A stretch of 64,000 nt of DNA, taken from an uncultured Gammaproteobacteria bacterium. GTDB lineage: Bacteria; Patescibacteriota; Patescibacteriia; JAHIZJ01. Positions 3,689 through 53,687 of this stretch are shown in pieces; the first letter of the stretch is position 1; the number at the start of each line of letters is the position of its first letter. The position numbers and the translations under genes were made by a program. The stretch spans positions 379,042 to 443,041 of the forward strand of contig CAYJKP010000001.1 in the NCBI GenBank assembly GCA_964371245.1. The letters run 5' to 3'. The notes beneath the pieces were generated by a model that saw only the letters and a program-made list of their open reading frames with translations, made no database searches and was not told the DNA's origin.

Positions 3689-4257
3689 GACTCGGCACTA
3701 TCAGTAGCAAAAAGCGGCATTGGACGCGACAAACGAAAACTAAGGACAGGCAAGCCTCATTTGCCAGTCGAATACATCCGACAAATGTACGCAATTCGGG
3801 TCGTCGAATGGTCAATAAATTTTTTGATTCGACGTTTTTAGCGGTTCGACGCGTGGCCGTGGTAACATCGTCGTTTCAGCCGAAAAGGAAAATACATCAA
3901 AACTGCGAGCTGCTTGAACAAATAACTGAGCTGCTCGCCAGCCCGAGCGAGGTGGTGCGGCTTTCAGCTCTTCAGGCCTACCTCCAGCTGCCCCTGCCGT
4001 TGGCCGAGTATCGCACAATTGCATTCCACGGACTAACGATTGGCTTGCGGGATCAACAGCCGCGCGTCCGTCGGCAAGCCGTTGTTTTGCTGGGCCAGTT
4101 TATCGAGGTGTATGCGGATCATTGGGAACACGGCATTCCTTTGCTGAACGATTGTTGTCACGATTCGGCAACGTCAGTGGCGAAAAAGGCATATGAAATT
4201 ATACAGCAGCAACACGCCAAAAAAGCAAAAATACAGAAAACATATTTGGTGAGATAG
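3685..4257 (+). CDS. HEAT/PBS-lyase-repeat-like protein
   Basis: Repeats of the form VRLSALQAY...QQPRVRRQAVVLLGQ look like HEAT-like helical hairpins. Start is probably the Met at 3808. Confidence 0.4.
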   Translation: MRLGTISSKKRHWTRQTKTKDRQASFASRIHPTNVRNSGRRMVNKFFDSTFLAVRRVAVVTSSFQPKRKIHQNCELLEQITELLASPSEVVRLSALQAYLQLPLPLAEYRTIAFHGLTIGLRDQQPRVRRQAVVLLGQFIEVYADHWEHGIPLLNDCCHDSATSVAKKAYEIIQQQHAKKAKIQKTYLVR

Positions 4258-11601: not shown

Positions 11602-11640
11602 ACTTGTAATTTTGAATTAATAATTCTGAATTAAAACCCT

Positions 11641-35639: not shown

Positions 35640-36050
35640 ATGGATAATACTGAAAAATATCTAAGTTTTGAAGAAACCTGCGGAAAGCCCCTCAAGTCAT
35701 ATTTTGCGATAGATGGCGAAAAACGCAATGTAGAAATATGTACGAAAAAAAAGGCCGTACATAACAGTTCTCACCCGCTCGAAGAAAGTCCAACTGTTTT
35801 TTATAATTTAAAAAATGTACTTTTATATCCTGATTATACTAGAACTTCAAAATCAAAGAATTCTTTATCAAAAAAACATATAGAAACCGCCAAAGAGGTA
35901 AAAGAATACACAAAAAAGAATTTTATTGAAAAGTTAAATCTACCTGGTGGATATGAACGAGGTGATGCGACGCTTATAGTTAAATATGGTGATAAAGATA
36001 CTGGTAAGAATTATACCTTGACTTACAGGATTAATTCTCCATCATCATGA
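35640..36050 (+). CDS. hypothetical protein (AT-rich cassette gene 1)
   Basis: 136-aa Lys/Tyr/Asn-rich ORF in a ~32% GC segment. Confidence 0.5.
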   Translation: MDNTEKYLSFEETCGKPLKSYFAIDGEKRNVEICTKKKAVHNSSHPLEESPTVFYNLKNVLLYPDYTRTSKSKNSLSKKHIETAKEVKEYTKKNFIEKLNLPGGYERGDATLIVKYGDKDTGKNYTLTYRINSPSS

Positions 36051-36319
36051 AATACCCTAATTTTAATGATTGGTTCATTTCATATGATCCTTATACAGAC
36101 TTTTTTCAAATGTATGACGAGAGTATTTTAAAGAGTTATAAGGAAGACTTGGTGTTGAAAAAAAATGGTCATGCAAGACTATATTTTAGCAAAAGATCTC
36201 CCAAGCTGTTATTGATAGAGGTCGATGGGGTATATGATAAATTTAAAAAAGATATAAACAGTATGACAAAAAAGCAGGTTGTCGGTTTGATAAAACCATT
36301 AATTAATTCATTTATTTAA
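36047..36319 (+). CDS. hypothetical protein (AT-rich cassette gene 2)
   Basis: ATGA start/stop overlap with gene 1 suggests translational coupling. Confidence 0.5.
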   Translation: MKYPNFNDWFISYDPYTDFFQMYDESILKSYKEDLVLKKNGHARLYFSKRSPKLLLIEVDGVYDKFKKDINSMTKKQVVGLIKPLINSFI

Positions 36320-36323
36320 TTTT

Positions 36324-36587
36324 ATGGCAGAAAATCAGCAACAAAAAATTACAATTATTAGCAAGCCCATTGGAATAGCATCAGATGGCAACGCAATAAA
36401 TGTACAAGAAAATGGAAATGTTGAATTAATATTTTTCCAAATTGTTCAGAAACTAGAACATGAGCTTCAGGTACAGGGAGTTGCAAATATTCGAATGAAT
36501 ATTGGTCAATTAGAGCAATTTATGCGTATATGTAATCAGGCCATTTCTGAATATAAGAAAAAACAGGAAGATAAAAAAAGTGCATAA
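36324..36587 (+). CDS. hypothetical protein (AT-rich cassette gene 3)
   Basis: Starts 4 nt after gene 2. Acidic/helical C-terminus. Confidence 0.5.
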   Translation: MAENQQQKITIISKPIGIASDGNAINVQENGNVELIFFQIVQKLEHELQVQGVANIRMNIGQLEQFMRICNQAISEYKKKQEDKKSA

Positions 36588-36695
36588 ATTCTATAATCTT
36601 CTCGACAATGCTATCCAATCACTCGCATTAGTAAAAGCTGGAAAATCTGTCCGTTCCGGTGGTTATACAAATTAAGAAAGTTTTTATGAATTATT

Positions 36696-36724
36696 ACGAC
36701 GGCAATATAGGTGCCGTCGTTTTA
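36696..36724 (+). terminator. hairpin terminator after the AT-rich cassette
   Basis: ACGACGGCA-atatagg-TGCCGTCGT followed by TTT. Confidence 0.5.
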
Positions 36725-36790
36725 GCATTGACAAAAAGACAAATTTATAGTATCCTTTACTGTTGAGCAATTACTTTGTACAATACAGGT

Positions 36791-38269
36791 ATGGCCGAGA
36801 AATTGTATAAAAATATCCAGCTGATCCACGAACGCGGGTCGCAGTATTTCAAGCACTACTTCATCCCGCACGACGGCAATCGGCATCAGCCCGGGATTCT
36901 CCACCCGAATCTTTTGCGTGCCTACAGCGTGATTGTCATTGCGGTGAAAATATTTCTCACCGGTTTTTTGTTTCTGTCATATCCCAGCCCGGGCGAATTC
37001 GCGTCAGTCACGGCCAGCCAGATTATCGAATTGACCAATGTTGAACGGAAAAACAGCGGTTTAGTGGCCTTACAGAGCAATGGCAAGCTCGCCCAGGCGG
37101 CGGCCCGAAAAGCGCAAGACATGATTGACCGCGGCTATTTTGACCATACCGGACCGGACGGCTCGCGGCCATGGACGTGGATTTCAAAGGCCGGCTATAG
37201 CTATCTCTATGCCGGCGAAAACTTGGCCAAGGATTTTTCCAGCGCCAAGAGCACGATGAACGCGTTGATGAACAGCGCCAGCCACCGGAAAAATATCCTG
37301 AACGATAAATACAAAGACATCGGCGTCGCGGTCGTAAACGGTAATTTTCAAGGCAAGGATACGATGATTATGGTTCAGTTCTTCGGTTCGGTCGTCGAAA
37401 CCGCGCCGGTCAAGGCGATCGCGCAGCCGTCGAATCCGACCACTCAGCCAAGCCAACCGAGTGCACCGCCTCAGACGAACCAAACTTCTCCGCCAGCACC
37501 CAAACCCGCTGAAACGTATATCGCGTCATATGTCACGCAGAGCGCGGAATCAATCGAGCTCGCCAGCGGCGTGGCAACGTCAATTTGGGCGGAATTTAAA
37601 AATACCGGCACAGCCACCTGGCGAAATACCGGCGACCATTTTATTGCCGTCAACGTTACGAATCCAGCCGGGCGATCAAGCCCATTTACTACCAAAGACT
37701 GGGTCGAGCCATACCGTCCGCTGATCATGAAATCGGCCGAGGTGAAGCCCCAGCAAGCCGAACGTTTTGAATTTACCGTGCAGGCGCCGACGAAGCCCGG
37801 GAAGTATTCGGAAAGTTTCGCCCTGGTGGCTGAAAACCTTGCCTGGATCGACGGTGGCGTCTTTACCATGCCGATTACCGTGATCGCGCCGCCCGACTCG
37901 AAACCGGCCGCAACCACGCCGCCAACAAAACCCATAACCAAACCCAGCACGCCAACTGAGCCGGCCACTGTTGTTTCCAACGACGTTCCAACAGCCGTGA
38001 GTCCGATTGCGATATCATTTACCCAGACGGCTACGACCGTAAAAAATACCAGCTCAACCGACCGGGTCATATCGTATACGCAGATATTCTTCCTGGTGCT
38101 GGTCGCGTTCCTGGTGCTTGCCCTCTTGCTGAATGTTTTCATTAAGATCCGCGTCCAGCATGTTCCGACAATCCTGCGGACGCTGTTGGTCATTATCTTG
38201 GCAGTGCTCGTCTATGCGACGCGTTTCCATTTCCTTGAGTCGCTTGGCAAATATATAAATATCTTCTAA
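36791..38269 (+). CDS. CAP/SCP-domain protein with N-terminal TM, Pro/Thr-rich linker, Ig-like module and C-terminal TM
   Basis: GYFDHTGPDG...GENLA...SASHRKNIL CAP motifs. Confidence 0.7.
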   Translation: MAEKLYKNIQLIHERGSQYFKHYFIPHDGNRHQPGILHPNLLRAYSVIVIAVKIFLTGFLFLSYPSPGEFASVTASQIIELTNVERKNSGLVALQSNGKLAQAAARKAQDMIDRGYFDHTGPDGSRPWTWISKAGYSYLYAGENLAKDFSSAKSTMNALMNSASHRKNILNDKYKDIGVAVVNGNFQGKDTMIMVQFFGSVVETAPVKAIAQPSNPTTQPSQPSAPPQTNQTSPPAPKPAETYIASYVTQSAESIELASGVATSIWAEFKNTGTATWRNTGDHFIAVNVTNPAGRSSPFTTKDWVEPYRPLIMKSAEVKPQQAERFEFTVQAPTKPGKYSESFALVAENLAWIDGGVFTMPITVIAPPDSKPAATTPPTKPITKPSTPTEPATVVSNDVPTAVSPIAISFTQTATTVKNTSSTDRVISYTQIFFLVLVAFLVLALLLNVFIKIRVQHVPTILRTLLVIILAVLVYATRFHFLESLGKYINIF

Positions 38270-48905: not shown

Positions 48906-49088
48906 ATGACAAGCCGAGACACGCTCCTGAGAGTTCTTGACCAGCAGGTCGAGAATCTCTACATTATCAAGCGTCCAAGGCAACATCCCTGTCCAGCCTG
49001 CGGTGCGCTGACATTCCATCTCTGGGTGTGTCGCAACTGCCTGAACCGACAGGCAGAAGAATATTTCAAAAAACGGCACGCTGCTTAG
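48906..49088 (+). CDS. small CPxC..CRNC zinc-finger protein
   Basis: GGGAGGG RBS before the Met at 48906; its stop overlaps the dinB stop region. Confidence 0.4.
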   Translation: MTSRDTLLRVLDQQVENLYIIKRPRQHPCPACGALTFHLWVCRNCLNRQAEEYFKKRHAA

Positions 49089-50377
49089 GACAAAAGCGGG
49101 TCAACCTCAAGGCGGTTGAGCTCAACTGCTTGGGCTGGTTGTGTCTTCCGGAAGCCGATCCGATCGGGCGCGTTTCGATCAGTTTCCCACATGCTACCCA
49201 AATAAATTGTAAACTCACCATAGACGTCGTTTATTTCATCTAGGGCGTTTGACAGCGCCGTATTTTTTTTCTCAGATGAAGACCAGAGCGAGAGCTGGTG
49301 TGAATGCGGTACGAGCCGAAAAGCCGTCACCGCCAGCATGCTGATGGGACGGCCGGCGAAGGAGCGACGGAAGATGGCCATCACTTGGTGAAAGATGTTG
49401 GCGGTGTCAGCGATTGGATACGGCAGAGTTTGGTGGCCGCTAAAGCCTCCACCCGTGCTGTAGCTCCAATAGACGCTGATGCCGCGGGCGACGCGTTTTT
49501 GCTGGCGCAGGCGACGGCCGACTTTTTCGCACAGCTTCATAAAAATTTTACGGTGATAGGCGGGATCGGCAGTTTTGATCGGAACACAGTATGAGTGGCC
49601 GATCGATTTTGGCTCAGTGGGCTGTTGAACGCCGCCCAGCTCGAGGCCGTGAAGGTTGGCCCAGAGATAATACCCGGGCTTGCCCAAAGATTGCAGAAGG
49701 TTGGCAACCGGATAGCGATACAGCTGGCCGGGCGTGAAGATGCCGAGGGCGTTCAGCCGCGCTTCCAAACGGTGGTTAATGCCCCAGATGTCCGTAAGCG
49801 ATATGCGTTCGTAAAAATCAAACAGATCATCCCTTGAAAGCGGCAAAACGCTCTGTGGGCCAGTGTAATCAGAAGCGAGCTTGGCCAGAAAGCGGGTGAA
49901 GGAGAGGCCGATTGATGAACGCAACCATTCGCCGACCTCGGTAGTAATTTCGTGTTGAATGCGAGACGCTAAACGGCCGGCTTCAGACAAGCCCGAAACA
50001 TGGCCGGTTAGATCGAGAAACGCCTCGTCAATGCTGTATGGCTCAACATCATTCGTATACCGTTTTAAAATAGTGAATATCTTTTCGGTCGTCGAGCGGT
50101 ACTTGGCCGGGTCATTTTGGATCAGAATAACCTTTGGGTAGAGCTGGCGAGCGTCGCGGACGCGGCAGCCGGTTTTAATGCCGACCTTTTTTGCTTCGAT
50201 CGACGAGGCAATAATACAGCCATTCTCACTCAGATAGGCGCAGACGCCGACCGGCTTGCCGCGCAAAAACGGATTTGCCTGCTGCTCAACCGAGGCGAAA
50301 TAGCTGTTCATGTCGATGTGGAGGATGATTTTTTTTGTATTTTGTTCTAACATAAGCCATTTAAATAATCTTTCCAC
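49085..50377 (-). CDS. dinB: Y-family DNA polymerase IV
   Basis: ILHIDMNSYFASVE and SIDEAFLDLTG catalytic motifs. Start is probably the Met at 50353. Confidence 0.88.
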   Translation of the reverse strand: MERLFKWLMLEQNTKKIILHIDMNSYFASVEQQANPFLRGKPVGVCAYLSENGCIIASSIEAKKVGIKTGCRVRDARQLYPKVILIQNDPAKYRSTTEKIFTILKRYTNDVEPYSIDEAFLDLTGHVSGLSEAGRLASRIQHEITTEVGEWLRSSIGLSFTRFLAKLASDYTGPQSVLPLSRDDLFDFYERISLTDIWGINHRLEARLNALGIFTPGQLYRYPVANLLQSLGKPGYYLWANLHGLELGGVQQPTEPKSIGHSYCVPIKTADPAYHRKIFMKLCEKVGRRLRQQKRVARGISVYWSYSTGGGFSGHQTLPYPIADTANIFHQVMAIFRRSFAGRPISMLAVTAFRLVPHSHQLSLWSSSEKKNTALSNALDEINDVYGEFTIYLGSMWETDRNAPDRIGFRKTQPAQAVELNRLEVDPLLS

Positions 50378-51332
50378 ACCTTATGCAGTCCTGTTTCTTG
50401 ACAGGCAAATAGGGCATGGTAGTATGAAAGTCTGCGTTTTTGACAATTCGTGTGTGAGAGAGGAGCGGGGAGAGCGCCGTGTTCTGCCCAGTCGTAAAAG
50501 CCCGGACTCCTGTCTGCGCCGGCGAATGTCGGCAGGACGGGCTCCGGTGCACTTGGCACTGGGCCACGCGCTCAAGAAGAACTTCGCTACGGTCTAGCGA
50601 GATCTTGCGTCAGGGTAAGCCTCCGGGGAAATGCGGCGTCTGTCGCGTTCCGGCCGGTCTATCCAAAGGCTGATCCGACACTTTCTGGCCAACACTAGTC
50701 GGATTGGAAGCGCTTTTCTCGGGTCGCGGGAGACGGCCGTCAGTGGTTCGTAAGCGGGGAGAACCTGCGCCACCGATTGCGTCGTCGTTCATGTCGATAC
50801 CGCGCCATCTACGCTTCCACCCTGTAGTACGTTCGCTTCTCTCTCACACTTTCGTTCTCTTCGTCTCTCCGCCACCTCCGTGGGGGAGGAAATCCTCGGC
50901 TGGACCCGGACTGCTGGTCGAGGTGGCTGCATGGCTGAGTGTTGGACGGGGCTCCACCAGGAGCTTCATACGCCGCAACGGCCTTCCGTTGGACGTTCAG
51001 CGCTTACGCGCATGGCCTACGTTCAGTCCGAAACCACCAGTGCGTCTAGCCTTTACCGGCTAGCGCGGGGCCCAATCCCATCAGGGAGCGGGCTCTTTTT
51101 CTTTGCAAAGAGCCAACAAATAATAAAGCCAACGGACATCGTAGAGCTATGTTTTTATCAAAGCCAATGATGGCGGGGTCTCGTTCTATTATCCTTTGCT
51201 GATTCTACAAGGCTTGCGCCGAAAACAAAGATTTTCGGCTACGATATTGGTTGCGTGCAGGCGGGCCGTTGTTATTTTCATGATTGTCCAACTACACGGC
51301 ATTAAACTCGTCGTTTTTATCCACACATTTTC

Positions 51333-51360
51333 TTGACACTGTGGCAGGGCGTGATATCCT
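51333..51360 (+). promoter_or_regulatory. sigma70-like promoter (TTGACA-16-TATCCT with upstream TG)
   Basis: Perfect -35 hexamer inside the GC-rich segment, facing a downstream terminator. Confidence 0.45.
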
Positions 51361-51366
51361 GAAAGC

Positions 51367-51662
51367 CTGTACCATGAAAGGATAAAACCGAGAGCGAGGA
51401 GGGAGAGCGTCGCCGAGAGAGCCGACGCCGCATTCCGGTTCTGATAGGGGACCATCGCTGATACGCGCACCTGCAGCCCGTCCGCGGCGGCGTTTTCCAG
51501 AAACTGACCGTTCCCGAGTCTTTCTGGAGACTGACCGTGTCAGAAGCCACCTGACAACCAAAGCCCTTCGGCTGGTTGTCCTTCGCCGTCCGTCTGACGC
51601 CCCCTCCTCCATTGTTTCTCTCGTTTCTATCCCTTGCCCGGCTCTTCGGAGTGCGGGTTTTT
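51367..51662 (+). ncRNA. candidate ~300-nt structured sRNA (promoter-to-terminator unit on the plus strand)
   Basis: Region bounded by the promoter and an intrinsic terminator. Contains hairpins GCGTCG..CGACGC, AGTCTttctggAGACT, CAACCAaaGCC(CTTCGG)GCTGGTTG and a direct repeat ACTGACCGT x2. Confidence 0.4.
51637..51662 (+). terminator. intrinsic terminator with UUCG tetraloop
   Basis: CCCGgCTC-TTCG-GAGtgCGGG followed by TTTTTAATTT. Confidence 0.65.
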
Positions 51663-51920
51663 AATTTGATCCATCCGTGTAGAGATCCTCTAGTTTCCAA
51701 GCAAGCGCGGAAGGGGAAAACGACAGAACGAATGTGTTTGAACTGTCTGATACGGAAAAGAAAAAAACAAGCTCGCGGCCGACCCGGTTCGTATGAACGA
51801 GGTTCAGCCTTTTCACGGTGTATCGCTTCCGTCCCCAGGTGAAGGCATGAGGCGTGATTTTCCGCCCGACAAAGGAAGCCAGAACGTGAACCGGTTCGTT
51901 TATCTTTTCATACATAAAGC

Positions 51921-51952
51921 AATTCAAAATTCAAAATGTAAAATTAAAAATT
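51921..51952 (+). repeat. AT-rich heptad-periodic repeat copy a (AATTCAAAATTCAAAATGTAAAATTAAAAATT)
   Basis: 7-nt periodic AATTnAA units; related copies at 51982, 52687 and 53136. Confidence 0.75.
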
Positions 51953-51958
51953 GAGGAA

Positions 51959-51975
51959 GCCCGCCCAGAGCGGGC
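51959..51975 (-). terminator. lexA terminator hairpin, centre of a ~95-bp AT-rich palindromic element
   Basis: GCCCGCCcagaGCGGGC; on the minus strand it is followed by TTCCTCAATTTTTAATTTT. Confidence 0.65.
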
Positions 51976-51981
51976 ACAATC

Positions 51982-52016
51982 ATTTTGCATTTTGAATTAT
52001 TAATTTTGAATTTCAT
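51982..52016 (-). repeat. AT-rich repeat copy b, inverted relative to a
   Basis: ATTTTGCATTTTGAATTATTAATTTTGAATTTC is the reverse complement of the a/c family. Confidence 0.75.
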
Positions 52017-52020
52017 CATT

Positions 52021-52677
52021 CTATTTCGCCGGCTGAAAGTTTCTGGTGTACGTCTTATAATTCTGCCAGTTGTGCTCGAACGTCCGAAAGATCGCCCGGA
52101 CAATGCCCTGGATGGCCGGGTTCTTCGCGTAAATCGGTTTCATCTTTGCGTTGGCTGGCTGGAGCCGAATGCGGTCGCGTTCGCGGTAGTAGCGTTTTAG
52201 GGTGGCATAGGTGTTGTCGAGCAGCGCCACGACGACGTCACCGTTCCGCGGGTAGAAGCTCCGCTCGACGATCACAAAGTCGCCGTCGAGAATGCCATCG
52301 TCAATCATTGATTCGCCTTTGACTTTCAGAACGTAGGAGTTTTCGTCGCGTACGATCTCGGCCGGGACGGTAATTGTTTCCCGCTCTTCGATTGCCTCGA
52401 TCGGCGCACCAGCCGTAATCAAGCCGGCCAGGGGCAACTCAATCGCTTTTTTGAAGCGGGCCACGCGGGTCGGTTCGAGCGAACGGGCCTTGCCGGCGTC
52501 GGCCTTAAGAAACCCTTTGTCCTCCAGGCCGCGGATATGCTCGGCGATGGTAGCGGGGGAGGAGAGGCCAAGGTGGTCGGCGATTTCCCGATAGCTAGGA
52601 GAAAAATCGTTGATCTTAATGAACTCGACGACGAAGTCGAGAATTTCTTTTTGTTTTTTGGTAAGGCGTTCGGTCAT
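52021..52677 (-). CDS. lexA: SOS repressor LexA
   Basis: N-terminal winged HTH (SPSYREIADHLGLSSPATIAEHI), Ala-Gly cleavage site region (LAGLITAGAPIEA), Ser (GESM) and Lys (VALLDNTYATLKRY) of the S24 peptidase dyad. Confidence 0.92.
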   Translation of the reverse strand: MTERLTKKQKEILDFVVEFIKINDFSPSYREIADHLGLSSPATIAEHIRGLEDKGFLKADAGKARSLEPTRVARFKKAIELPLAGLITAGAPIEAIEERETITVPAEIVRDENSYVLKVKGESMIDDGILDGDFVIVERSFYPRNGDVVVALLDNTYATLKRYYRERDRIRLQPANAKMKPIYAKNPAIQGIVRAIFRTFEHNWQNYKTYTRNFQPAK

Positions 52678-52686
52678 ATGGTTGGA

Positions 52687-52727
52687 AATTAAGAATTAAT
52701 AATTCAAAATTTAAAATGCAAAATTAT
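52687..52727 (+). repeat. AT-rich repeat copy c, located in the lexA promoter region
   Basis: AATTAAGAATTAATAATTCAAAATTTAAAATGCAAAATTAT. Confidence 0.75.
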
Positions 52728-52753
52728 GGAATACGGAATTAAAGGACAGTGGT

Positions 52754-53101
52754 TCACTCTTTTGATTTGAGTATGATGGTTGCGATAATTTTTGAAAGCT
52801 CATCATTTTCCATCGCTATGTTTTTTATTTGGGAATGCTTGATACCAGACAGCGATCCCAATACAGTCAACCAATATTCAGTTTCTCTGGCAGAGCGCAA
52901 GGCAATGCTCATATAGCGCCGGAACTCTTTCTTTGTTGCACCGTGTTGTGCCTCAACAATATTTGCCCCGATTGAACACCCTGAACGCATAACTTGGCTC
53001 CTGACGGCTCTTGATTCCGGTGTTAGAGTGACCGATTGAAGAAAATGGGCGAGGGTGATGCTAAATTGCAGTGCCCGCTGATGAATAGTAACAGTAGCCA
53101 T
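52754..53101 (-). CDS. four-helix-bundle protein (23S rRNA intervening-sequence protein / Avd-like, PF05635 family)
   Basis: ALQFSITLAHFLQ...SQVMRSGCSIGANIVEAQ...FRRYMSIALRSARETEYWL motifs. Start trimmed to MATVTIH. Confidence 0.75.
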   Translation of the reverse strand: MATVTIHQRALQFSITLAHFLQSVTLTPESRAVRSQVMRSGCSIGANIVEAQHGATKKEFRRYMSIALRSARETEYWLTVLGSLSGIKHSQIKNIAMENDELSKIIATIILKSKE

Positions 53102-53135
53102 AAAAATCTTTTCTGTTCCTTGCCGCCTTCCTTCC

Positions 53136-53160
53136 TTTTGAATTTTACATTTTGAATTTC
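53136..53160 (-). repeat. AT-rich repeat copy d, inverted, immediately upstream of the four-helix-bundle gene
   Basis: TTTTGAATTTTACATTTTGAATTTC; with copy c it brackets the 4HB gene. Confidence 0.75.
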
Positions 53161-53245
53161 TAGCCATTTTCATTATACCGAACAAAAACCGAACGTCAAG
53201 GGGTAGTTATCCACAAAGGTAAAAAACCGCTAATTATGGAAGTTT

Positions 53246-53273
53246 TCAAAACAAAAAGCACCGAGAAGGGTGC
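53246..53273 (-). terminator. intrinsic terminator of the 53310 gene
   Basis: On the minus strand, AGCACCcttctcGGTGCT followed by TTTTTGTTTT. Confidence 0.6.
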
Positions 53274-53309
53274 TTACGATGAAGGGTGCTAGCGATAGTT
53301 GGGACGCGT

Positions 53310-53687
53310 TTACCCGCGAGAGTGATGTTCCAGAGTGTGTTGTTGGTAGGCATGCCGCACCCAATGGAATAGGCCGAAGGAAACAAGGCCAGGGAGAAAG
53401 AGCACGAGGAGGCAGAAAAGCAGCGGCGTAAAGGTCTGTGACCCGAGGGAGGACGAAAGCTCCATGATCATCGATTGCGCTGTTTCCTGCAGAACGAACG
53501 TTGCCACGACCGTGAACGCCATCCAGCCGAACAGCAGAAGCCAGGGCGTGGCGGACCCATCGGGGCGGTGAATGAAGTGCCAGAGAGCCGATACAGCAAG
53601 TATCAGAGCGATGGCGTTACAGATCCAGAACGCGATCGCGGGACCGACGAGACGTTTCATGGGTACCTCCTCTTGAACAAGCCGCAC
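53310..53687 (-). CDS. hypothetical 4-TM membrane protein (GC-rich)
   Basis: 125-aa ORF with a probable start at MKRLVG (53660). GC ~58%. Confidence 0.5.
   Translation of the reverse strand: MRLVQEEVPMKRLVGPAIAFWICNAIALILAVSALWHFIHRPDGSATPWLLLFGWMAFTVVATFVLQETAQSMIMELSSSLGSQTFTPLLFCLLVLFLPGLVSFGLFHWVRHAYQQHTLEHHSRG

Follow-up and report, generated by a model that had tools for sequence, protein, structure and literature searches.

Genes of the four-helix-bundle (4HB) family PF05635 are known from the intervening sequences (IVSs) of bacterial rRNA genes. In the 23S rRNA IVS of Coxiella, an open reading frame (ORF) of this family (S23p/4HB) lies in the loop of a 28 bp stem that is cut by RNase III, and tandem GACAGAT heptamers are found just 5′ of the S23p ORF (PMC4990558). 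In the candidate phyla radiation (CPR), 4HB ORFs occur in insertions of both 16S and 23S rRNA, and short insertions without an ORF are also present at known IVS sites of the 23S rRNA genes (PMC11270868). Genes of the same family (23S_rRNA_IVP) have likewise been located inside cas operons, and were read as candidates for a CRISPR-associated function (PMC3936711). The element described here is a 4HB gene enclosed by inverted arrays of tandem 7 nt units and located upstream of lexA, within a 64 kb stretch of contig CAYJKP010000001.1 (the window) from an uncultured member of the Patescibacteriota.

Tandem heptamers have been described separately, as free-standing repeats: GGGAATC in Xanthomonas, TAACTGA in Beggiatoaceae, and the arrays of Nostoc and the short tandemly repeated repetitive (STRR) sequences of cyanobacteria, with 70–75 convergent inverted heptamer pairs in Xanthomonas (PMC4692102, PMC4679880). 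Heptamer simple-sequence repeats are over-represented in bacteria generally (PMC4692102). In a preprint on Nostoc, TTTTGAA/TTCAAAA arrays near the LexA-regulated genes recF and recO are reported to affect reporter expression, and a binding partner for these arrays, not identified there, is postulated (10.1101/2022.06.06.494920).

Avd is a further small protein with a four-helix bundle. In diversity-generating retroelements (DGRs) it binds nucleic acid and the reverse transcriptase, and is a partner in nucleic-acid transactions. Avd (PDB 4DWL) is homologous to PF05635, belongs to the same CDD family and has been structurally aligned with 2GSC (PMC10053308). A literature search of incomplete coverage found no paper linking 4HB/PF05635 genes to heptamer repeats. 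As described below, the gene-plus-heptad-arm unit exists outside rRNA and across bacterial phyla, and it connects the IVS protein of rRNA with the heptamer repeats of bacteria.

A heptad-armed cassette in the lexA operon

All genes of the locus are on the minus strand, in the order promoter and box, arm d, 4HB gene, arm c, lexA, arm b, GC hairpin, arm a, orf84 and dinB. Four AT-rich heptad repeats of about 30–40 nt had been proposed from the sequence-only reading of the window. All four are present, two in plus orientation (a, 51921–51952; c, 52686–52731) and two in minus orientation (b, 51982–52014; d, 53122–53160). Each has a period of 7 nt over 3.4–5.9 units (Tandem Repeats Finder), so that each arm, with at least three tandem 7 nt units in intergenic DNA, is in itself an array of the STRR type. 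The repeats exceed chance expectation: a 25 nt repeat copy with up to 3 mismatches occurs twice at the locus and in 0 of 100 shuffles, and when up to 1 mismatch is tolerated, the window holds 11 occurrences of the 12-mer AAAATTCAAAAT against 1.6 expected, 10 of them at the lexA locus. Outside this locus no further arm copies were found within the 64 kb window. The sole look-alike is a two-heptad mini-palindrome, TTTTGAATTAATAATTCTGAATTAA, in the rplJ–rplL spacer (11607–11634); rplL is not preceded by a Shine-Dalgarno sequence.

Read along the minus strand, arm d (53118–53160, AAAUUCAAAAUGUAAAAUUCAAAAGGAAGGAAGG in the mRNA) is the 5′, A/purine-rich arm, and the complementary arm c (52686–52747) is the 3′, U/pyrimidine-rich arm, which ends 8 nt before the lexA ATG. 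The two enclose a 4HB ORF of 115 codons (52754–53101), one fewer than the 116 aa first proposed. Downstream of lexA, the A-rich arm b (51982–52014) pairs with the U-rich arm a (51921–51952), which ends 6 nt before the orf84 ATG. Together with a 17 nt GC hairpin at the tip (GCCCGC-loop-GCGGGC, 51957–51975), seen in the fold, these two arms make up an ORF-less palindrome that had been put at about 95 bp and measures 94 bp. The best-matching pairs within the window are nested, a with d (84 % over 38 nt) and b with c (88 % over 34 nt). The ORF-less palindrome and the ORF-bearing cassette therefore have terminal inverted repeats in common, as would be expected of a miniature inverted-repeat transposable element (MITE) and its parent.

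The encoded protein is assigned to the 23S rRNA IVS protein/Avd-like family by its matches to PF05635 (E=7e-21, 74.9 bits, cut-off 33.8) and TIGR02436 (E=1.5e-24, 86.3 bits, cut-off 24), and its closest solved structure is PDB 2RLD (E=1.4e-15). The family motif GxxRxxxSxxxNxxE (PMC3936711) is represented by an R..S...N..E helix motif, and Q36, R39, S43, N47, E50 and E73 are invariant in an alignment of 13 sequences; this alignment was too divergent for pattern design, for which one of 8 sequences was used instead. No record was returned by an exact-protein look-up of the 116-residue translation, which includes one codon upstream of the ATG, and no match by PADLOC. Ten contigs with identical LexA (L001–L010) are from the same organism (99.8–100 % identity); where they break close to the locus, the breaks fall outside the repeats and are uninformative. 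One of them, the low-coverage contig L009, is missing some 20 nt within the 3′ end of the 4HB gene (1458–1469, equivalent to window 52782–52812), a deletion that leads to a 147 aa ORF call and is either a strain variant or an assembly error.

Two orthologous loci, L011 (4HB 89 % and LexA 99.5 % identical) and L013 (66 % and 86 %), retain the promoter and box, d, the 4HB gene, c, lexA, b/a and orf84. Across the window, L011 and L013 the d:c duplex is predicted at −26.7, −32.1 and −36.4 kcal/mol (z −4.7 to −5.6). The terminal inverted repeats are thus able to form a long stem of the IVS kind, with z −4.7 for d:c and the stem kept in both relatives. The b-hairpin-a fold is at −29.2 kcal/mol (z −2.5). 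Pairing of d with a reaches −29.5 kcal/mol in the window as opposed to −16 and −14 kcal/mol in the relatives, and the nested arrangement d:a plus c:b was rejected as a conserved structure. Since d:c is strong at all three loci and d:a in the window only, the conserved pairings are d/c and b/a.

Between the window and L013, identity at third codon positions is 0.41–0.44 and the proportion of synonymous differences (pS) is about 0.8, indicating saturation of synonymous sites. Exact arm blocks are nevertheless shared by the two, namely 27 nt in d (AAAATGTAAAATTCAAAAGGAAGGAAG) and 17 and 13 nt in c, where CCATAATTTTGCATTTT and TTAATTCTTAATT are conserved. The ratio of nonsynonymous to synonymous substitution (dN/dS) for the 4HB gene against L011 is 0.28. 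Judged by sequence comparison, the cassette is old and constrained in this lineage, with purifying selection on the 4HB protein and conservation of blocks within the arms.

The sole strong minus-strand promoter at the locus, of the σ70 type (TTGACG-16 nt-TATAAT, 53172–53199, 11 of 12 consensus matches and the best site in 51600–53500), is located upstream of arm d. Its spacer contains GTTCGGTTTTTGTTC (53180–53194, minus strand), a GTTC-N7-GTTC direct repeat present as a single exact copy in the window and a putative LexA operator. L011 matches the window throughout the segment of promoter and box (39/39) and L013 at 25 of 29 positions, and the gene order lexA-orf84-dinB is kept in relatives. 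Conserved gene order and displacement of the box away from lexA make the window 4HB gene the first gene of an SOS-type operon; on the same evidence arm c is not the lexA promoter, and a/b is internal to the operon.

The cassette resembles the rRNA IVSs of Coxiella burnetii and Leptospira in that a PF05635 ORF is placed in the loop of a long stem, with heptamers adjoining (in Coxiella), and in that the element is co-oriented within a transcribed unit; the optional nature of the ORF is likewise shared. It differs in its host transcript, which is the leader and spacer of an SOS operon mRNA rather than helix 25 or 45 of an rRNA: the element lies between a promoter and lexA, and an Rfam search of the window returned no rRNA. 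The window gene is under purifying selection, unlike the Coxiella ORF, which is in decay and apparently not translated, and excision by RNase III, shown for IVSs, is proposed here by analogy. With the known heptamer arrays it has in common the tandem 7 nt units, the intergenic position and the proximity to start codons, and the Nostoc heptad TTCAAAA/TTTTGAA is also found here. In contrast to free-standing arrays, those of the window are the two arms of a unit enclosing a 4HB gene or an ORF-less derivative; the papers cited above for such arrays deal with G-quadruplex, translational or promoter effects, and the 4HB gene is unmentioned in them.

Unlike the gene for Avd, the window gene stands alone between heptad arms, inside an SOS operon, and has neither a reverse transcriptase nor a template/variable repeat pair nearby: in the Pfam lists of L001, L011 and L013 no gene with an RVT domain occurs in the 10 kb to each side, and the only repeats found were the heptad arms. 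A scan of viral contigs for 4HB relatives, meant as a contrast set of DGR Avd proteins, returned none. The unit recalls MITEs and repetitive extragenic palindromic (REP) elements in its inverted ends, in existing with and without an ORF, in the nesting of one copy in another, in being present in some close relatives and absent from others, and in its intergenic location, but there is no transposase, the ends are tandem heptads that differ between copies, and no high-copy family of identical elements is seen in the 64 kb. The 4HB genes of cas operons belong to the same family and are similarly wedged between operon genes. Their description (PMC3936711) does not include heptad arms or a cassette nature, although arrays are present in an Anabaena cylindrica example described below.

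Cassettes at other lexA loci and in unrelated genomes

A LexA scan of species-representative genomes yielded 80 loci. Profile (hidden Markov model) searches located ten 4HB genes in 64 Patescibacteria lexA loci (L016–L079), none of them more than 1 kb away from lexA (a zone of 122 kb in total), with the remaining 214 kb of flanks devoid of such genes. The ten are distributed over all three spacers of the lexA-orf84-dinB operon and appear to include no fewer than seven independent insertions. Cassettes are found between promoter and lexA in the window, L011, L013, L035, L039 and L040, between lexA and orf84 in L035, L028 and L039, and between orf84 and dinB in L038, L044 and L026. Those between lexA and orf84 in L035, L039 and L028 take the position of the ORF-less a/b palindrome of the window.

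Every 4HB gene at a lexA locus is flanked by inverted period-7 arrays, and the heptad sequence is specific to the cassette (AATGCCA/TGGCATT, ACATACA/TGTACGT, AATTACA/TGTAATT, CCAGGAC-CATGTAC and CATGTAG/CTACATG). For 8 of 13 cassettes the best partner of the 5′ flank is the 3′ flank of the same cassette; most of the five exceptions involve orthologues, decayed copies or mis-set flanks. The upstream cassettes of L035 and L039, whose proteins are about 60 % identical by eye, carry AATGCCA/TGGCATT and AATTACA/TGTAATT arms, respectively, which differ at the same two heptad positions on both arms and hence represent a two-sided change. Among the tandem repeats of these genomes, a period of 7 nt is the most frequent. 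In the L039 cassette downstream of lexA an assembly gap (a run of N at 4130–4230) falls inside the CCAGGAC/CATGTAC array, and heptad arrays probably break short-read assemblies.

The same site may be empty or filled in close relatives. In L028 the promoter|lexA site is empty (GTTCTA-TATG-CTCC), with the box directly against lexA. In L035, with LexA 97 % identical to that of L028, it is filled and reads GTTCTATAC-TATG, a cassette of ~570 nt, and TATG-CTCC, leaving a possible 4 nt TATG duplication at the insertion junctions. Similarly, L017 (LexA 83 % identical to that of the window) has the promoter, a 55 nt leader and lexA without a cassette, and L013 (86 %) has the cassette. Taken together, the promoter|lexA spacers of L028, L035, L039, L040, L042 and L054 (LexA 89–98 % identical) fall into at least five states. 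One is empty, two hold a filled cassette, each with a heptad of its own, a fourth is ORF-less and a fifth degenerate. At 98 % LexA identity, L039 has a filled spacer with AATTACA arms and L042 an ORF-less one with TTCAAAA arms.

ORF-less heptad palindromes are present in many other lexA leaders, and pairs of ORF-less and filled units occur in L040, L042 and L035 as well. The ORF-less palindromes of L042 and L040 retain the arms together with an inner motif (GAGGCC...GGCAT) resembling the one that adjoins the 5′ arm on its inner side in the filled L035 cassette, and their 3′ arm is preceded by a short GC hairpin, as it is in L035. Their cores are homologous, with different heptads in both arms. 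In L040 (2300–3000) an ORF-less palindrome is nested within a filled cassette whose 4HB gene is frameshifted, and both have AATGCCA-type arms. The suggestion of a mobile or processable cassette, first made from an empty copy beside a filled one in the window, is supported by relatives in which filled, empty and ORF-less versions of the same sites are seen.

Outside the lexA loci, a metagenome scan with the 4HB alignment gave 80 loci with proteins 30–45 % identical to that of the window, of which 71 genes had complete flanks. A strong period-7 array was found in 19 upstream and 23 downstream flanks, compared with 0–1 for periods of 5, 6, 8, 9 and 10 nt. Period-7 arrays cover 6.9 % of the 150 nt upstream and 9.4 % of the 150 nt downstream against 0.28 % beyond 300 nt, an enrichment of 25- to 33-fold, and cover 8.1 % as against 1.4 % of other non-ORF DNA on the same contigs. 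An array is present at 33 of the 71 4HB genes and in 5 of 79 intergenic segments (odds ratio 12.9, P=1e-8). These positional and intergenic controls were used after a first control was dropped, as its neighbouring ORFs shared 4HB flanks.

The arrays are about 35 nt long and are located about 15 nt from the ATG or stop codon. A clear inverted repeat was detected in 35 of 78 cassettes (the 71 plus seven from the Patescibacteria loci) as opposed to 1.7 % of cross-locus pairs. The polarity of the arms is constant: purines predominate in the 5′ arms (mean 0.64, with no arm at 0.4 or lower) and pyrimidines in the 3′ arms (mean purine content 0.37, with no arm at 0.6 or higher). Neighbouring genes are co-oriented with the 4HB gene in 109 of 132 cases. 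Upstream arrays in this set (L096–L175) contain stops in all three sense frames in 17 of 26 cases, compared with 33 % in shuffles, which follows from 7 being 1 modulo 3 whenever the unit contains a stop. Such stops may insulate the cassette from upstream translation; as an explanation of the arms they were not adopted, the arms of the window not showing them.

The arrangement recurs in named genomes. The 4HB gene is flanked by GGTCGGA/TCCGACC on plasmid pNPUN01 of Nostoc punctiforme, by TAGTGAT (17 copies) and ATCACTA upstream of recF in Bernardetia sp., and by GAAAGNG/CCGCTCT in Treponema saccharophilum, and AAAAGTA arrays surround a 4HB gene between cas2 and cas1 in Anabaena cylindrica. Among plasmid records, 22 have a 4HB match, 14 of them from Nostoc. 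Inverted repeats around a 4HB ORF in an IVS-like layout outside rRNA, noted beforehand at the window locus alone, are conserved there as d:c and recur in Patescibacteria, metagenomes and named genomes.

Interpretation and alternative explanations

The window locus is best explained, with somewhat better than even confidence and by analogy with rRNA, as a resident IVS-type insertion cassette: a PF05635 gene within long imperfect heptad inverted repeats whose RNA stems would be cut by RNase III. The a/b palindrome, in this explanation, is an ORF-less derivative of the same kind of cassette, one spacer further on. Since the filled cassette is positioned between a promoter under presumed LexA control and lexA, it would be transcribed as the first part of an SOS mRNA with the order d, 4HB, c, lexA, b/a, orf84, dinB. 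The purine-rich 5′ arm and the pyrimidine-rich 3′ arm would then form an RNA stem of ~35–45 bp with the 4HB ORF in its loop, and b/a a hairpin of ~40 bp. Stems of more than 20 bp suffice for RNase III. Cleavage, if it proceeds as in the Coxiella and Leptospira 23S rRNA IVSs, would free the cassette, and the leader then remaining on lexA would be very short, much as in cassette-free relatives, whose lexA looks leaderless. Release of this kind could account for the tolerance of cassettes in transcribed spacers, operons and rRNA.

Several observations weigh against this explanation. The minimum-energy fold of the full 1.26 kb transcript pairs d with a and c with b. The fold of d-4HB-c, proposed earlier as a check for a long RNase III-type stem, gave a divided answer, in that d pairs with c around the 4HB ORF when the segment is folded alone, yet the stability of the entire segment does not exceed that of shuffles (z −0.6). 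Whole-arm identity between the window and L013 is 84–85 %, moderately above low-complexity shuffles, and for this reason weight is put on the exact shared blocks. A paralogous, decayed copy between rfbC and pfkB (L015), with an A-rich array upstream and a T-rich one downstream, shows weak arm complementarity (z −0.7). Among the mismatches between arms, G•U is no more frequent than A•C when the sense strand is read (23 and 24, with 94 transversions), and the mismatches hence give no positive sign of selection at the RNA rather than the DNA level. A search of the 64 kb and L001, a small part of the genome, for the signature of an RNase III gene came back empty, which is uninformative for the whole. 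Finally, the cassette is vertically inherited in this lineage and no second filled copy was seen, so that the case for mobility rests on other clades.

The lack of a G•U bias also fits a proposal in which the heptad arrays are protein binding sites, most simply for the flanked 4HB protein itself, a presumed pentameric Avd-like bundle, in an autoregulatory circuit. ORF-less arrays such as a/b would then be targets in trans that modulate lexA, orf84 and dinB, and the symmetry of the arms would be an arrangement of sites rather than an RNA stem. Conservation of the arm sequence itself, including the 27 nt block identical in L013, the use by a/b of the same heptads as the d/c arms of the resident gene, and the effect of Nostoc TTTTGAA/TTCAAAA arrays on reporters, with their postulated partner (10.1101/2022.06.06.494920), all fit this proposal. 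The strict 5′-purine/3′-pyrimidine polarity and the frequent co-orientation with neighbouring genes instead point to a strand-specific role at the level of the transcript, and the IVS precedent is one of RNA processing. As a full account, binding sites are considered unlikely, though they are compatible with RNA-level release of the cassette and do not exclude it. A less probable account still is that the arms are terminal inverted repeats (TIRs) of a DNA transposon-like element, with the filled form as its autonomous or marker copy and a/b as its MITE-like derivative, both moved at the DNA level by an enzyme encoded elsewhere and with any RNA stem incidental. It would make sense of the filled and empty sites with their possible TATG duplication, of ORF-less derivatives that retain the ends, one nested within another copy, of the many states of a single spacer among close relatives, and of a mismatch spectrum that is symmetric at the DNA level. 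It is countered by the protein, a 115 aa helical bundle without a recognized transposase fold or catalytic motif, by the lack of a transposase nearby, by the stable inheritance of the window copy, and by arms that vary in sequence between cassettes while their design stays constant, unlike transposase-specific TIRs. TIRs are not known to have a tandem heptad structure.

The two remaining accounts leave the 4HB gene out. According to one, a/b is the intrinsic terminator of lexA and c a regulatory array at the lexA promoter, as the sequence-only reading had it for a/b and had allowed for c, with the repeats unrelated to the 4HB gene. An A-rich arm, GC hairpin and U-rich arm do resemble an extended bidirectional terminator, and arms are found in every operon spacer. 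Neither assignment held up. The terminator scan did not call a/b, where only 4 of the 8 nt that follow the stem are U; the GC hairpin is absent from L011 and replaced by a different one in L013; and since orf84, with its start 6 nt past arm a, and dinB follow in a conserved operon, a/b is not a canonical terminator, although partial termination there may occur. Within c the promoter scan called nothing on the minus strand, the promoter and box conserved for lexA are upstream of d, and the same arm design surrounds 4HB genes in unrelated contexts, all of which makes this account very improbable. Scarcely credible is neutral replication slippage in AT-rich spacers, with symmetry and proximity to 4HB genes due to coincidence. 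The general over-representation of heptamer repeats in bacteria (PMC4692102) and the prevalence of period 7 in these genomes are in its favour, but it is at odds with the enrichment of arrays in 4HB flanks over both distant and other intergenic DNA, with complementarity that is specific to a cassette's own arms, with constant polarity and with blocks conserved despite saturated synonymous sites.

A broader and more tentative proposal, possible rather than probable, is that stand-alone PF05635 genes and STRR-type heptamer arrays are two halves of one widespread, undescribed class of element. Its members would be heptad-armed, with ORF-less derivatives, would colonize transcribed spacers, operons and rRNA, and would be removed or regulated at the RNA level, with the 4HB protein recognizing or maintaining the arrays and the SOS operon a preferred site in these Patescibacteria. 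Three puzzles would then merge, namely the function of the IVS protein, unknown since the 1990s, the origin and role of the heptamer repeats of bacteria, and the 4HB genes wedged into cas loci, rRNA genes and, here, an SOS operon. An Avd-like protein would also come under LexA control next to DNA polymerase IV. For Patescibacteria, the results provide a predicted SOS operator, GTTC-N7-GTTC, and identify the lexA-orf84-dinB operon as a cassette hotspot. For genome annotation, a class of intergenic palindromes would be explained, and probably some assembly breaks too, such as that in the L039 array. The gene-plus-heptad-arm unit is a concrete object for experiments on RNase III cleavage, on binding of the 4HB protein to the arms, and on insertion and loss in populations.

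Promoter box, operon genes and neighbouring features

GTTC-N7-GTTC is the LexA box type of alphaproteobacteria. The box is found in the lexA promoter of 40 of 55 Patescibacteria-type loci, usually 3–60 nt from the lexA ATG and 440–710 nt from it where a cassette intervenes. It overlaps promoter elements in related lexA loci, and the promoter layout of the window recurs in L017–L019 and L022–L024. Judged by this conservation it is probably the SOS operator of the group. Two flavours, GTTCGGTTTTTGTTCGG and GTTCTATTTTTGTTCTAT, occur among L017–L074, and in five loci just 3 nt separate the end of the box from the lexA ATG, a spacing suggestive of a leaderless lexA. In L018 and L019 (LexA 74 % identical) a GC-rich hairpin without heptads, CAGTGGCGTATAGTCTGG...CTAGACTACACGCCACTGG, is located between the SOS promoter and lexA; a leader hairpin thus recurs even where heptads do not.

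The lexA gene (52021–52677, minus strand) matches TIGR00498 (E=2.7e-54) and has LexA DNA-binding and Peptidase_S24 domains. The conserved small gene orf84 (51661–51915, minus strand, 84 aa) was detected by tblastn between lexA and dinB in L011, L013, L017, L024, L026, L038, L042 and L044; searches of Pfam and PADLOC returned nothing for it, and it may represent an uncharacterized component of the SOS operon. The distal gene dinB (49085–50377, minus strand), for DNA polymerase IV, has IMS and IMS_C domains. The ORF-poor interval of ~1.3 kb between orf84 and dinB (50378–51660; 1.28 kb) contains no convincing ORF, yet is ~91 % identical to L011 and so conserved like the neighbouring genes. A 180 aa ORF called in this stretch of L011 is Arg-rich and looks spurious, and L013 has a different, secreted-looking 185 aa gene at this position.

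Just upstream of the SOS promoter, a 16 nt tandem duplication (two copies of GAAGGGTGCTTACGAT, 53265–53296) overlaps a terminator-like hairpin (53256–53275); the two probably mark the end of the preceding gene, which encodes a 125 aa membrane protein. A cluster of RuBisCO, IF-2B and PYNP genes is located near the locus. The window also contains an AT-rich island at 35800–36400, the GC content being 0.35 over 36001–37000 compared with ~0.49 for the window.

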